From IMG/VR virus record IMGVR_UViG_3300045988_077922, positions 1 to 33,775 of that record: DNA of 33,775 nt; one strand, given 5' to 3'. The notes beneath the pieces are model-generated. The model did no database searches, had not been told where the DNA came from, and saw only the letters and a program-made list of their open reading frames with translations. Shown here one piece after another: positions 1 to 33,775 of this stretch; position 1 is the first letter of the stretch, and the number at the start of each line of letters is the position of its first letter. The position numbers and the translations under genes were made by a program. Source of the DNA: a virus.

Positions 1-220
1 TGGATGTTGCCGAAAGGGCAAATGGAAATGCCCCAGAGGGCAAATGGATTTTGCCAAAAGGGCAAATGGAAATGCCCCAGAGGGCAAATGGAAATGCCCC
101 AGAGGGCAAATGGAAATGCCCCAGAGGGCAAATGGAAATGCCCCAGAGGGCAAATGGAAATGCCCCAGAGGGCAAATGGAAATGCCCCAGAGGGCAAATG
201 GAAATGCCCCAGAGGGCAAA
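1..220. repeat. Tandem 22-bp iteron array (units 2-10 plus a partial unit 11); putative origin of replication inside the initiator gene
   Basis: The unit gggcaaatggaaatgccccaga starts at 16, 60, 82, 104, 126, 148, 170 and 192. A variant gggcaaatggattttgccaaaa starts at 38 and a partial gggcaaa at 214. Each unit contains the inverted repeat GGGCA-n8-TGCCC. Confidence 0.8.
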
Positions 221-236
221 CCTATACCAGATATAA
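3..236 (+). CDS. Continuation of the 33396 ORF through the iterons (codons at positions divisible by 3), ending at TAA 234-236
   Basis: Frame was tracked by hand across the 55-bp overlap: 33723 corresponds to base 3. The product is ...KGQMDVAERANGNAPEGKWILPKGQMEMPQRANG...QRANLYQI*, the same frame as track ORF 51..236. Confidence 0.5.
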   Translation, partial: DVAERANGNAPEGKWILPKGQMEMPQRANGNAPEGKWKCPRGQMEMPQRANGNAPEGKWKCPRGQMEMPQRANLYQI

Positions 237-577
237 ACACAGATATAACCACACTTAATAAACCAGATATACGCGCACCGAAGAAGGAGATGAGCAACAA
301 ATATGGAGAGTACAAGAACGTCCTTCTCAGCGATACAGATTTGGCGAAGCTAAAAAGCGAGTTCCCCAACGATTGGGAGGAGAGAATCGAACGGCTCAGC
401 GCCTACATAGCTTCGACGGGCAAGAGCTACAAGAGCCATCTAGCGACCATACGCAATTGGGCAAGACGTAATTCAGAAGCTCGCAAGAAGACGAGCCGCA
501 ACGAATCTCATTGGCAGAAAACCGAGGAAGAGAAGCAAGACGAGGAAGCATGGATGCGCAACGTCATCCAATGCTAG
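44..577 (+). CDS. DnaD-like / phage replication-protein C-terminal domain ORF; it starts inside the iteron array and is out of frame with the N-terminal ORF
   Basis: KYGEYKNVLLSDTDLAKLKSEFPNDWEERIERLSAYIASTGKSYKSHLATIRNWARRN matches the DnaD / phage replication C-terminal domain pattern (KS-H-x-T-I-x-x-W). This frame is open from 33629 around the circle. Confidence 0.7.
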   Translation: MDFAKRANGNAPEGKWKCPRGQMEMPQRANGNAPEGKWKCPRGQMEMPQRANGNAPEGKPIPDINTDITTLNKPDIRAPKKEMSNKYGEYKNVLLSDTDLAKLKSEFPNDWEERIERLSAYIASTGKSYKSHLATIRNWARRNSEARKKTSRNESHWQKTEEEKQDEEAWMRNVIQC

Positions 578-595
578 GAGAAGGGAGCAAATGAA

Positions 596-1432
596 ATGGA
601 CACTGACAAACTGATTCAAGGCATAGCCGAGACGGCGGGTAGGGCCAACCGCCAAAACGAGGGCGATTACATCGAGAACGGCATCCTCATGTGCGGCAAG
701 TGCCGAACGCCGAAGCAATGCGAGATGGAGCTGGGCGGGCGGATAATAAAACCTTACTGCATGTGCCGCTGCGAAGCCGAGGGCTATGAGCGCGAGAAGG
801 AGGAGAAGCGCAAGGCTGAGCGAATGCACAGGCTCGACATGATGCGCCGCACTGGGTTCCCCGATGCTGAGATGCGGGCGTGGACTTTCGAGAACGACGA
901 TGGCGGCAACGAGAAAATCATGGACGTGATGAAGCGCTACGTCGCGAACTTCCCGCGCATGCTCGAATCTGGCAAGGGCCTTATGCTTTGCGGGTCGGTT
1001 GGCACTGGGAAGAGCTACGCAGCCGCCAGCGTTGCCAACGCGCTTATAGACGCGGGAACGCCCTGCATGATGACCAACTTCAACCGCCTGGTTAACGTCA
1101 TCAACGAATCGTTCGAGAGGCGGCAGAAGTACATCGACAGCCTGAACGAGTTCGACCTGCTGATAATCGATGATCTGGCCTCTGAGCGCGACACCGAGTT
1201 CATGGCCGAGCGAATCATGAACATCATCGACGCGAGGTACCGCGCGGGACTTCCGCTAATCGTCACCACGAACCTCACCGTCCAGGAGCTTTTGGGAGCC
1301 ACGGACATTCGCAAGCAGCGGGTTTTCAGCCGATTAATCGAGATGTGCGTCCCGATAACCGTCACGGGCCGCGACCGAAGGAAGGCGAAGGCCGCGCAGA
1401 ACGCCGAGATCATGGGGCTGCTTGGGCTGTGA
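596..1432 (+). CDS. DnaC/IstB-like AAA+ helicase loader with an N-terminal Cys cluster
   Basis: Walker A is GSVGTGKSYAA and Walker B is LLIIDDL. TTN is a sensor-like motif. The N-terminal CGKCRTPKQC...CMCRC is zinc-finger-like. Confidence 0.85.
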   Translation: MDTDKLIQGIAETAGRANRQNEGDYIENGILMCGKCRTPKQCEMELGGRIIKPYCMCRCEAEGYEREKEEKRKAERMHRLDMMRRTGFPDAEMRAWTFENDDGGNEKIMDVMKRYVANFPRMLESGKGLMLCGSVGTGKSYAAASVANALIDAGTPCMMTNFNRLVNVINESFERRQKYIDSLNEFDLLIIDDLASERDTEFMAERIMNIIDARYRAGLPLIVTTNLTVQELLGATDIRKQRVFSRLIEMCVPITVTGRDRRKAKAAQNAEIMGLLGL

Positions 1433-5353: not shown

Positions 5354-5584
5354 ATGAAAGAGTACATCATTCCAAGCAAGATGTATCAGGTGCTGAAATG
5401 GCTCGGGCTTATCGCATGCCCCGCAATCGCAACCTTCATAGGCGCGGTGTTCCCTGCGTGGGGAATCCCGAACGCCGATGCAGTCGTGCTCACGCTCAAC
5501 GCAACGGGCGTTCTAATCGGTGCCCTGATCGGAGTCAGCACGGCAACCTCGCGCCAGGCAGACGATGAGGAGGTGCAGAAATGA
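5354..5584 (+). CDS. Holin (Dp-1-type holin family pattern)
   Basis: [52 protein letters not shown] is followed by a charged tail. An ATGA overlap links it to the endolysin. Confidence 0.75.
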
Positions 5585-6627
5585 CCATGCAAGGCATCGA
5601 CTGCGCATCATATCAGGCGGGCATCGACCCGTCCGTGGTTCCGTGCGATTTCGTAATCGTGAAGAGCACTCAGGGCACGACGTACGTAAATCCAGACTTC
5701 CGCAGACTGGCAGAAGCCACGCTCGCGGCTGGCAAGGCTCTGGGCATCTACCATTACGCGAGCGGCGGCAACGCCACGGACGAAGCCAACCACATGCTCG
5801 ACGTGGCGGGCGGATACATCGGGCGGGCAATCTTCTGCCTAGACTGGGAGGGTATCCAGAACAGCGCGTTTGACAGCGGGCGCGACTCGGCTTGGATTGA
5901 CGAGTTTTGCAGCGTAATCGAAAACCGCGTCGGCTCTGAATGTCTGGTCTACCTGAGCAAGTCCGTCATGGGGTATGCAGCAGGTCACAAGCTGTGGGTG
6001 GCTCAGTACGCCAACATGAACCGCACGGGCTACCAGGACAACCCATGGAACGAGGGAGCTTACGACTGCACTATCCGCCAATACACTTCCATGGGACGCT
6101 TGGACGGCTGGGGCGGTGACCTCGACTTGGACAAGGCATACATGAGCCGAGAGGAATGGGACGCATGGGCGGCAGGAAACGGCGCTTCATCACCAGCTGG
6201 GAAGAGCAACGAGCAGATTGCCGACGAGGTAATCGAAGGCCAGTGGGGAAATGGAGACGATAGGCGCAACCGTCTAGCAAGCGCTGGATACGACTACGAC
6301 GCTATCCAGTCGATCGTCAACGCAAAGCTCCAGCCTTCGAGAAAGAGCAACGAGCAGATCGCAGACGAGGTTATCAACGGCGCATGGGGCAACGGAAACG
6401 ATAGGCGCAACCGCCTTGCCCAGGCAGGGTACGACCCTGACGCTATCCAGTCGATCGTGAACACGAAGCTTGGCGTATCGGCTCGGCAGACCTACACGGT
6501 CAAGAGAGGCGACACGCTCTCGGGAATCGCCGCCAAGTACGGCACGTCGTGGCAGCACCTCGCAGAGCTGAACGGACTCGTCAACCCGAACATCATCTAT
6601 CCAGGACAAGTTCTTACGATCGGATAA
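5581..6627 (+). CDS. Endolysin: GH25 muramidase + 2 x CW_7 repeats + LysM
   Basis: GIDCASYQ...[18 protein letters not shown]...GIYHYA is GH25-like. Two 47-aa repeats ([36 protein letters not shown]) are CW_7-like. The C-terminus [29 protein letters not shown]...IYPGQVLTI is LysM-like. Confidence 0.9.
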
Positions 6628-27585: not shown

Positions 27586-29100
27586 TCAGATTCGCAGAGT
27601 GTACTCTAGCTGCGGTTCGATATGGCTTCCCGATTCTGTTTTCGTGTAGTCTACTCTTTCAATAATCATCTTCAATAATCTGTTCTTATCGGCAGTATCC
27701 AGACTGTGGTATTCATCCAATACCTTGGTCAAGATGGGTACTGCTTTTTTCTGTTTGCTTTCACGCTGCGCGATTTTGTCTTCCAGCATGCTTTTTTGTC
27801 GCAGCAGATACGCTTTCTGCGATTGGAGCTTTTGCGACCTGTCAAGATATTTTGCTCGGCTGTAATCGCCAAGCTCGTAAAGCTCGTCAACCCTGTCGAG
27901 CATCTTGTCTTTCTTCTCTATCTCCGATTCAACTATCTCCAGCGCCTTTTCGTCCGTGTCATCTGCTTCGACACCGCCATATTCGGCTAGAACGGTAAGC
28001 TGTCTCGACAGCTCATCCTTCAGCGCATCCAATATCATATTCTCCACCATAGGAAGGCTGGAATTGCGTGTTTCGCATTTGAAGGTCGAGCATTGAAGGC
28101 GTTCCGTGGTCACGCCTTTCCATGTGTAGGTCGTGCGTCTCATGACCTTACCGCACTTCGAACAATGCAGGAACGATGCGAGAGGGTTCGATAGCTGTTT
28201 GCTCACAGCCTGTCTCGTGCTTCTCATCGCGAGAAGTTCCTGGCATTTGTTGAAGGTTTCGACGCTCACTATCGGCTCGTGTTTGCCCTTCACCGTGCCA
28301 TGGTTCAGGTTTCTCACTCGGCTTTCGATTATTTTGCCGTCTTCGATGCGCTTCTCTGTGCGCTTTATCTTGACGTTTATCTCGCCAAGATAGACTCTGT
28401 TCTTGATTATGTCTTGCACCCTGTGGCTCGTCCATGCAGTGTCGTAAACCTTCGACGGCTGGATTCCCATTCTGTTCAGCTCGTGCATTATGCTCGCTGC
28501 AGATTCTCCGCTGGCGTATCTCTCGAATATCATCTGGACGATTGGAGTCTGCTCGTTCGGTACCAGAATCCAGCCCTTGCCGTCTGGGTTCTTCATCTTG
28601 TCGTAGCCGAACGGAGGGGTAGCGCCGATGAAGTAACCATCCTGCTGAGACTGCATCCTTCCTCGAAGCAATCTTCGCTTAATCATCTTGTATTCTCGAC
28701 GGCTCATGAATAGACCGAATTCGAAGAATTCCTCATCGAATTCGTCTTCCCCTGCCAAATCGTATGTTTTGTTCAAGGTGATGATCTTCGTATCCGAGAA
28801 CTGGAACGCCTTCAAGGTCCTCGACTGGTCTTCACCGTTTCCTCGGCTCAATCGTTCAAGCTCCACGCACAGCACGCCATCATATTCGCCAAGTTCGACG
28901 TGCTTCAGCAGCCTTTGCATCTGCGGTCTCGCTTCGATGCTTTCACCTGACACGACTTCTCTGTAAACGTCCTGCTCGCAGACTAGGATGCCCATTCTGT
29001 CTGCCAAATCCTGAAGCATCTTCTCGTGTCTTGCCAGCGTGTCCTCGATGCCAGTGTCATCGTCCTTTCTAGATTTTCTCAAATACATTGCGTATGCCAT
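27586..29100 (-). CDS. int: Large serine recombinase (phage integrase)
   Basis: The N-terminal resolvase domain is MYLRKSRKDD...REVVSGESIEARPQMQRLL...VLCVELERLSRG, followed by a recombinase domain, the zinc ribbon CSKCG...C..FKC and a coiled coil. The gene is AT-richer than the rest of the genome. Confidence 0.9.
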   Translation of the reverse strand: MAYAMYLRKSRKDDDTGIEDTLARHEKMLQDLADRMGILVCEQDVYREVVSGESIEARPQMQRLLKHVELGEYDGVLCVELERLSRGNGEDQSRTLKAFQFSDTKIITLNKTYDLAGEDEFDEEFFEFGLFMSRREYKMIKRRLLRGRMQSQQDGYFIGATPPFGYDKMKNPDGKGWILVPNEQTPIVQMIFERYASGESAASIMHELNRMGIQPSKVYDTAWTSHRVQDIIKNRVYLGEINVKIKRTEKRIEDGKIIESRVRNLNHGTVKGKHEPIVSVETFNKCQELLAMRSTRQAVSKQLSNPLASFLHCSKCGKVMRRTTYTWKGVTTERLQCSTFKCETRNSSLPMVENMILDALKDELSRQLTVLAEYGGVEADDTDEKALEIVESEIEKKDKMLDRVDELYELGDYSRAKYLDRSQKLQSQKAYLLRQKSMLEDKIAQRESKQKKAVPILTKVLDEYHSLDTADKNRLLKMIIERVDYTKTESGSHIEPQLEYTLRI

Positions 29101-32949: not shown

Positions 32950-33265
32950 GTACCACGCAAAGAAGACGGTCGTTGACGGAATCGAGTTCGACAGCGCGAA
33001 GGAAGCCAAGCGGTATACCAAGCTCCGCGATATGGAGATGGCAGGCAAAATCCAAGGACTGCATCTCCAGGTTCCGTTCGAGCTTTTGCCGAGCTTCGAA
33101 TGCGACGGGGTGAAGTATCGGGGCATGCGGTACATCGCCGATTTCGTCTATATCCGCGACGGGAAGCGGGTCGTGGAGGACTGCAAGGGCTTCAAGACTG
33201 CCGAGTACAAGCTCAAGAAAAAATTGATGGCGTACATCAATCACGTAAACATCGAGGAATCGTGA
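32930..33265 (+). CDS. DUF1064-family protein (PD-(D/E)XK-like, resolvase candidate); TTG start inferred
   Basis: SKYHAKKTVVDGIEFDSAKEAKRYTKLRDMEMAGKIQGLHLQVPFEL...YIADFVY...VEDCKG is present. An RBS gaggagg lies 8 nt upstream of TTG 32930. Confidence 0.65.
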   Translation: MAARASKYHAKKTVVDGIEFDSAKEAKRYTKLRDMEMAGKIQGLHLQVPFELLPSFECDGVKYRGMRYIADFVYIRDGKRVVEDCKGFKTAEYKLKKKLMAYINHVNIEES

Positions 33266-33374
33266 TGCTATAATAGGTCATGCAAGAGTGATGGACTTGC
33301 AACGACATAGCTTTCAAGCCTTAATGGCATGAAAATAAAAGCCCCGCCGCAGCCATCACCTGTGACGGGGCTTT
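33265..33374 (+). promoter_or_regulatory. Extended -10 promoter-like element followed by two hairpins, upstream of the initiator gene
   Basis: TGcTATAAT lies at 33265-33273. The first hairpin is TGCAAG-n9-CTTGCA at 33280-33300. The second, stronger hairpin is AAAGCCCCG..CGCAG-ccatcac-CTGTG..CGGGGCTTT at 33338-33374. Confidence 0.4.
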
Positions 33375-33395: not shown

Positions 33396-33775
33396 ATGGC
33401 ACTGCACATGTTCGACCCGCAAATAGCGAAAGAATACGGGGTCAATGCGGCAATCATCTTCCAGAACATTGCGTATTGGATTGTGCACAACCGCGCCAAC
33501 GAGACCAACTTCTACGACGGCAGGTATTGGACATACAACTCAATCAAATCGTTCGCCGAGCTTTTCCCGTACCTTACGGACAAGCAGATTCGCGTCGCGT
33601 TGAAGAAGCTGGAAGAAGGCGGGATGATCATGGCCGGCAATTACAACAATTCGACCTACGACCGCACGAGTTGGTATACATTTGCCGAAAAGGGACTTTC
33701 CATTTATACAAAAGGGCAAATGGATGTTGCCGAAAGGGCAAATGGAAATGCCCCAGAGGGCAAATGGATTTTGCC
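33396..33775 (+). CDS. Replication initiator / replisome organizer, N-terminal winged-HTH origin-binding part (runs off the window and continues at base 56 of the circle)
   Basis: RBS taaggggag precedes ATG 33396. The product MALHMFDPQIAKEYGVNAAIIFQNIAYWI...YLTDKQIRVALKKLEEGGMI...DRTSWYTF has the typical phage replisome-organizer N-domain pattern. Confidence 0.8.
   Translation, partial: MALHMFDPQIAKEYGVNAAIIFQNIAYWIVHNRANETNFYDGRYWTYNSIKSFAELFPYLTDKQIRVALKKLEEGGMIMAGNYNNSTYDRTSWYTFAEKGLSIYTKGQMDVAERANGNAPEGKWIL
33714..33775. repeat. First units of the same iteron array, including the window-end copy of bases 1-55
   Basis: Variant unit 1 (gggcaaatggatgttgccgaaa) starts at 33714 and continues into the units seen at 16 and 38. 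Bases 33721-33775 are identical to 1-55. Confidence 0.85.

Follow-up and report, generated by a model that had tools for sequence, protein, structure and literature searches.

A 22-bp repeat array inside a phage replication initiator gene: a putative embedded origin whose frame-breaking repeat number is probably an assembly error

Does a phage split its replication initiator into two out-of-frame pieces, or has the number of repeats within the initiator gene been misassembled? The question is raised by the viral contig IMGVR_UViG_3300045988_077922 of IMG/VR (positions 1–33,775; this whole stretch of 33,775 nt is called the window below), in which the coding sequence of an initiator enters a tandem array of 22-bp units in one reading frame, while its C-terminal half lies in another. 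A first-pass annotation of this DNA had offered three explanations, namely a misassembled repeat number, two separate polypeptides, and a switch of initiator architecture through repeat-number changes. The analysis reported here favors the first of them. It also gives the repeats a role absent from that annotation, which we regard as the main point of the locus: they appear to be the iterons of a replication origin with an adjacent AT-rich element.

The array lies across the junction of a circle. Positions 1–55 of the window are exactly those of 33721–33775 (no strand assigned), a 55-nt terminal overlap indicating that the contig is circular, that its true length is 33,720 nt, and that the assembler closed the circle within the array. 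Since 33,720 is divisible by 3, reading frames carry across the junction and the frame tracking of the first-pass annotation holds; the duplicated 55 nt are to be trimmed ahead of any annotation or frame analysis. Tandem Repeats Finder (TRF) placed the main part of the array at 15–220 (period 22, 9.4 copies, 93% matches, score 370), with a further part at 33711–33775. In register, the array occupies 33690–33775 and 1–220 of the plus strand, with ten full units starting at 33712, 14, 36, 58, 80, 102, 124, 146, 168, and 190, preceded by a degenerate unit at 33690 and followed by a partial one at 212–220. Seven consensus units follow one another at 58–211, and 59–220 forms a perfectly periodic tract of 162 nt. 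Because the units are identical, the array of this phage lineage has recently expanded, to at least 10 units, and its length may vary. The 18-nt core GGGCAAATGGAAATGCCC occurs nine times (0.04 expected by chance), always within the array and once as the terminal duplicate, and a whole-genome scan found it nowhere else. In every unit an inverted repeat, GGGCA/TGCCC, flanks an A-rich center.

The reading frames across the array were as previously described. The unit, said to be free of stop codons in the forward frames, has none in any of the six, which is unremarkable in itself because 34% of shuffled units are likewise stop-free in the three forward frames. All three overlapping open reading frames (ORFs), 4..258, 44..577, and 51..236, are present. 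The N-terminal ORF starts at ATG 33396, crosses the junction and ends at TAA 234–236 (plus strand), giving 186 amino acids (aa), while the C-terminal half is in the frame of the plus-strand ORF 44..577, with its folded domain at roughly 287–480 and its stop codon TAG at 575–577. No single ORF therefore continues through the array at the assembled copy number. Adding one unit gives one ORF of 307 aa and removing two gives one of 285 aa, as the first-pass annotation had worked out for +1 and –2 units. Of its statement that the array encodes a 22-aa protein repeat, the period stands, but the peptide as written has 24 letters and does not. In-frame ATGs within the array are found at 44, 110, and 176, and also at 116 and 182.

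To what extent relatives keep the frame was assayed as the distance in nucleotides from the end of the N-terminal domain (conserved DRTxWY) to the codons of 'PIPD' behind the array. In 13 relatives the distances were 87, 87, 87, 87, 87, 108, 108, 108, 153, 93, 93, 87, and 60 nt, all 13 of them divisible by 3. The distance in the window is 263 nt, that is 87 + 8 × 22, which leaves a remainder of 2 and lies eight units above the closest relatives. Arrays of relatives occupy the same position in the gene and consist of 2–5 units of 21–24 bp, and the bigger ones grow by frame-preserving blocks of 66, 45, or 42 bp: L012 has a duplication of three units, or 66 bp (TRF period 66), P0065, P0078, P0273, and P0308 carry 22-aa protein repeats, P0275 has two-unit periods of 45 bp, and L018 and L019 differ by 42 bp. 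The array-bearing relatives come from very different hosts, among which are those of Coriobacteriia-type gut phages and of cultured Lactobacillus phages, as well as Campylobacter, Gastranaerophilales, Peptostreptococcaceae, and Cellulomonadaceae.

The closest homologues are single proteins of 241–256 aa that contain both halves and are encoded on 33–35-kb contigs, which supports the earlier view of the two ORFs as halves of a single canonical initiator. The comparison of fused and split forms proposed in the first-pass annotation was also carried out. Among the 120 best homologues of the N-terminal domain, 118 are full length (216–303 aa) and the other two are fragments at contig ends; clearly, selection holds both domains together in a single chain. 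Searches for the repeat itself reached only remote loci: an exact-pattern scan of the viral collection gave no match, that of the metagenome collection gave one distant relative (L022, two units, gene intact), and a scan of representative genomes gave distant relatives only, 42–50% identical.

Other assemblies of the same phage were then compared at the array, where, as had been noted, the ends of the window also fall. The same phage is present in L001, a 33,918-nt scaffold from ENA whose flanks match the window with 0 mismatches over about 6.5 kb; its array is interrupted by two 100-N gaps, one placed exactly where the ends of the window lie and the other after window position 77. A contig from another sample (L003) is 100% identical over 2,347 nt and begins inside the array, with 4 consensus units vs. 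7 in the window. It begins with GA, as expected at the junction behind the first unit; the array would then total five units and the gene would be intact at 263 aa, although, with the upstream part missing, this is no more than a suggestion. The third, NODE_433 (L002 1–1566 and L024 2931–3511; ENA ERZ1308104; 35,288 nt; 4x coverage), is 100% identical to the window from 219 through 33359, that is, it carries the whole phage without the N-terminal domain and the array, and has unrelated DNA at both ends. The array thus defeats all four assemblies of this phage, as well as one of a relative (L038). The 55-nt overlap presumably reflects a de Bruijn assembler with a final k of 55, and hence reads of around 100 nt. 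Such reads are shorter than the 162-nt periodic tract, so the number of loop traversals can only have been an estimate, and a random error in the count puts the gene out of frame in two-thirds of outcomes.

In the relative L038, positions 1795–1875 (ENA ERZ27244762 k141_24423; 84–88% nucleotide identity) jump from the first iteron, out of frame, into 'EKLQAEFPT' of the C-terminal domain. This jump is another assembly failure at the iteron array, and it yields the false protein P0272 (124 aa), which had been considered as a natural relative with the N-terminal domain only and was rejected as a mis-join 5 nt from the contig end.

Taken together, the contig ends within the array, the gaps of L001, the differing count of L003, and the retention of frame in all 13 measured relatives favor a misassembled repeat number. 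The real gene is probably intact, and its split a repeat-count error of short-read assembly; most likely the assembled count is wrong by one or two units and the gene is one ORF of roughly 285–330 aa. Several points weigh on the other side. The unit count was taken from assembled contigs. Exact look-ups of ten hypothetical in-frame initiators of this phage, with variants of 241, 263, 285, 307, and 329 aa, in a collection of 15 billion proteins were all negative; the window's own 177-aa ORF was identified there, as a JGI/IMG protein from a contig of 33,775 nt. The assembler put in more units than the shortest path through the repeat needs, and so may have been led to about 7 consensus units by evidence such as read pairs or coverage. 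Of the 150 best representatives of the C-terminal domain, about a quarter are short proteins starting in or just after the linker, and the Lactobacillus phage phiLdb has a free-standing 104-aa copy of the N-terminal domain, which together make separate domains not unthinkable. Finally, the binding of the repeats and their origin activity, discussed below, are argued by analogy.

Less likely is a dominant genotype that truly has the out-of-frame count, or a population whose counts are mixed through replication slippage between identical units. The frame-breaking molecules, with a null or crippled initiator, would then persist as prophages or by complementation from in-frame siblings. Seven consecutive consensus units are an ideal substrate for slippage, two samples differ with 7 vs. 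4 of them, a temperate phage can tolerate a replication defect as a prophage, and no in-frame assembly of the phage was found. Against this, the circular contig without host flanks suggests replicating or packaged DNA and hence a working initiator, no measured relative breaks the frame, and both counts come from short-read assemblies broken at the array, so that neither is trustworthy. A further step would be a hypervariable array in which slippage makes the initiator alternately intact (at unit counts of 2 modulo 3) and split. The locus shares with phase-variable contingency loci a perfect tandem repeat in an ORF, with a 22-bp unit not divisible by 3, and such a switch would be a heritable, reversible on/off control of autonomous replication in a temperate phage, with the free N-terminal domain possibly occupying the origin as an inhibitor; we consider it quite improbable.

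Very improbable, too, is that the two halves are made as unjoined, cooperating polypeptides, an N-terminal binder with a repeat-encoded tail and a C-terminal domain started from an ATG of the repeats. The unit does contain GAGGGCAAATGGAAATG, a Shine-Dalgarno-like GAGG followed by two ATGs 3 or 9 nt on, C-domain-only short proteins are common among the representatives, and the free-standing N-terminal domain gene of phiLdb is a parallel. However, close relatives offer no precedent, the best N-terminal homologues being full-length fusions but for the two contig-end fragments, and the short C-terminal proteins may themselves come from assemblies that break at arrays. Moreover, in the model for plasmid pSK41 the N-terminal domain tethers the recruiting C-terminal domain at the origin (PMC5703833), which would imply that the two domains have to be part of a single protein. 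A programmed –1 ribosomal frameshift joining the halves within the stop-free array is scarcely credible: the needed shift, from frame 0 to frame 2, is indeed –1 and about 200 nt are free of stops in either frame, but no relative requires a frameshift and a homopolymer run for transcriptional slippage is absent. This candidate was rejected for want of an X XXY YYZ slippery heptamer in frame 0 of the unit. A misassembled count in an intact gene thus remains the preferred explanation.

Why a repeat whose length is not a multiple of 3 should be kept within a gene would be explained if it acts as DNA. The protein that surrounds it has two parts. The N-terminal part (33396–33710, plus strand) is a winged-helix domain of a replication initiator and putatively binds the origin. 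Its residues 1–105 match phrog_11233, 'replication initiation protein', with E=5e-44, over profile positions 1–105 of 297 only, and there is a weak match to the 'O-like' phrog_678 (E=1.7e-8). The domain and linker structure was taken from an AlphaFold2 model of P0002, a natural full-length homologue, and not of the window's own protein. In this model residues 1–104 form a confident winged helix-turn-helix, residues 148–215 a confident small helical domain, and residues 107–143 have a predicted local distance difference test (pLDDT) score of <50; this low-scoring stretch coincides exactly with what the repeats and the AT-rich DNA encode. Among PDB structures, the N-terminal model is closest in fold to the N-terminal domains of staphylococcal RepA_N plasmid initiators (4pql, 4pt7, and 5kbj), with weak Foldseek scores (E=2e-3 to 1e-2, target template-modeling score 0.52–0.55) about equaled by generic winged-helix regulators. 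Pfam RepA_N (PF06970) gave no match at E≤0.1 with the window protein or at E≤1 with homologues, neither Pfam nor NCBIfam has a family for either initiator half, and a sequence search of the PDB gave no match.

Directly 3′ of the array lies an AT-rich stretch (221–275, plus strand), a candidate DNA-unwinding element that encodes 'PIPDINTD', a conserved part of the linker. Its GC content is 0.36–0.38, vs. 0.554 for the genome, and it contains an 11–12-bp repeat (CAGATATAAACA; TRF 228–271, period 12). Behind the array, the nine bases ATACCAGAT show no nucleotide difference, even at synonymous positions, among all 16 loci with the motif (the window and 15 relatives, phiLdb among them), while the N-terminal domains of these relatives are only about 50–85% identical to the window's. 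The fuller motif, ATACCAGAT(ATAAACACAGAT), is at 221–245 of the window and also in L004–L016, L022, and L037. This pattern suggests that ATACCAGAT is a conserved DNA element of the origin, perhaps the start of unwinding or a site for a host factor, rather than a protein constraint. Likewise, the iteron core RGGGCAAATGG is conserved in whichever codon phase it is read. Because the core and ATACCAGAT are kept independently of coding, the constraint appears to act on the DNA itself.

The C-terminal half matches the C-terminal parts of phrog_8489 and phrog_13246 (E=2e-9 and 2e-8), which are labeled 'DnaD-like helicase loader' and 'replisome organizer', and 3,898 representative proteins share its conserved domain, most of them at their C-terminal end. 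A fold search of its model against the PDB returned nothing with E below 2.8. The designation of this half as DnaD-like in the first-pass annotation was thus not upheld, as it has the PHROG names in its favor and no support from Pfam, NCBIfam, or fold. Directly downstream, at 596–1432 (plus strand), is a gene for a DnaC/IstB-like AAA+ helicase loader (Pfam IstB_IS21, 1.6e-9; phrog_50 'DnaC-like helicase loader', 1e-55).

It was also observed that the module of N-terminal domain and iterons is paired with at least four unrelated C-terminal domains (L009–L011, L013–L016, and L029–L035). Behind the same module are found the window's own type, PF09524 of the SPP1 G38P type (L009–L011, E=8e-32), DUF6017 (L029–L035), and a 'FWxxYPKK' type, and the point of exchange is the end of the origin.

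From this arrangement, and by analogy with known systems, we infer that the 22-bp repeats are iterons of a theta-type origin of the phage, placed inside the linker-coding part of its own initiator gene. Direct repeats stand between the domains, an AT-rich stretch adjoins them, the loader gene is adjacent, and two domains with a flexible linker are predicted by the model of P0002. As proposed from lambda O, G38P, and pSK41 RepA, the N-terminal domain would bind the iterons, the adjacent AT-rich stretch would melt, and the C-terminal domain, tethered by the disordered linker, would recruit the loader and the helicase encoded next door. The spacing of 22 bp, about two helical turns, would be dictated by DNA geometry and not by codons. 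Successive units are then read in successive frames, and only some unit counts keep the domains in frame.

Several systems of this kind have been described. In lambda, gene O has the origin, with iterons and an AT-rich region, at its center; Stx phages have 6 iterons instead of 4, and their O is longer by 13 aa (PMC7466680). The window shares with lambda the order of tandem iterons and then an AT-rich region in the middle of the initiator gene, and relatives differ in iteron number and thereby in protein length, as lambda and Stx phages do. The proposed layout is also that of O, whose N-terminal part binds the iterons and whose C-terminal part recruits a helicase-loading partner encoded next door. 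In contrast to lambda, no sequence similarity to O was seen beyond the weak phrog_678 match, the units are of 22 bp, strictly head-to-tail and in 10 or more copies rather than 4–6, and the host is probably a Coriobacteriia-type gut bacterium.

In the staphylococcal plasmid pSK41, rep has the Rep boxes at its center, and the segment encoded by this origin is a linker, not itself essential, between a winged-helix N-terminal domain that binds the repeats and a C-terminal domain that is exchangeable and host-specific; chimeras such as pPR9 swap the N-terminal domain and the origin together (PMC5703833). The window resembles pSK41 RepA in its predicted winged-helix N-terminal domain, in repeats placed centrally in their own gene, and in a linker encoded by the putative origin, but it is a phage and not a plasmid, a DnaC-like loader follows, and PF06970 does not match. 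Iterons of RepA_N initiators are semi-palindromic and centered on an A-tract (PMC7145576), and the units of the window, with GGGCA/TGCCC around an A-rich center, resemble them. In Bacillus phage SPP1, gene 38, which encodes the replisome organizer G38P, contains oriL with its repeated boxes and AT-rich unwinding element (PMC5737612). Placement within the initiator gene is common to oriL and the putative origin of the window, and L009–L011 even join the window-type N-terminal domain and iterons to a G38P-type C-terminus; the window's C-terminal domain, however, does not belong to PF09524, and the boxes of SPP1 have another sequence and arrangement.

The closest homologue found in a cultured phage is phiLdb_00039 ('replication initiation O-like'), which is 55% identical over the N-terminal domain. 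The gene order of phiLdb is the same: one ORF of 276 aa with about 2.5 iterons (period roughly 22–24 bp) and ATACCAGATATAAAC, then a DnaC-like loader. It differs in having 2–3 iterons only, another iteron sequence, another C-terminal domain, and an intact gene. Immediately ahead of the full-length initiator gene, phiLdb also has genes for two small, free-standing winged-helix proteins that consist of an initiator-type N-terminal domain only (L037 831–1145 and 1183–1473), the one of 104 aa being 52% identical to the window's N-terminal domain. These small proteins may have been left over from an exchange of modules, or may act as regulators competing for the origin.

The unrelated ends of NODE_433 were found to be joined at defined places. 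At one end, a segment of GC content 0.39 with a different initiator N-terminal domain is joined exactly at 'CCTATACCAGAT'; at the other, an ABC-permease gene of GC content 0.60 is joined within a hairpin at about 33360. Either NODE_433 is a chimera that arose in assembly by way of the conserved origin motif, or N-terminal domain and origin were really swapped as in pPR9/pSK41.

The arrangement is thus one already known, and the rotation of frames with its allowed counts is a consequence of it and not a new mechanism: iterons spaced at about 22 bp entail rotating linker frames, of which one residue class modulo 3 is permitted. For annotation, if initiator genes of this widespread phage family carry their own origin, two adjacent 'hypothetical' ORFs of this kind are to be read as one gene, and the repeats as the origin. 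Long perfect iteron arrays are broken or miscounted in short-read assemblies, and apparent frameshifts there are not biological evidence without long reads. Were the out-of-frame count real and variable, the locus would be a rare case of a replication gene switched by its repeats.

Outside this locus, the circle has the gene content of a temperate phage of the siphovirus type, including an integrase, terminase, portal, tape measure, and endolysin. The phage is regarded as temperate because of the integrase (27586–29100, minus strand, 504 aa; phrog_95, E=8e-96), and it was nevertheless assembled as a circle without host flanks. Its host is probably a Coriobacteriia-type gut bacterium, the homologue P0002 being named 'uncultured Senegalimassilia sp.' Genes for DUF1064, dUTPase, SSB, and Rad52-like proteins lie upstream of the initiator. 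Two elements ahead of the initiator gene are consensus matches only: a promoter-like site at 33246–33274 (plus strand; TAAACA-17-TATAAT, with an upstream TG), and a GC-rich hairpin at about 33341–33372 (plus strand; GCCCCGCC...GACGGGGC), which adjoins the initiator ribosome-binding site on its upstream side and could either terminate the upstream operon or attenuate initiator expression. Another tandem duplication, of 141 bp, was seen at 6202–6470 (1.9 copies, 82% matches) within the endolysin gene (5581–6627), where it probably encodes repeated cell-wall-binding modules.

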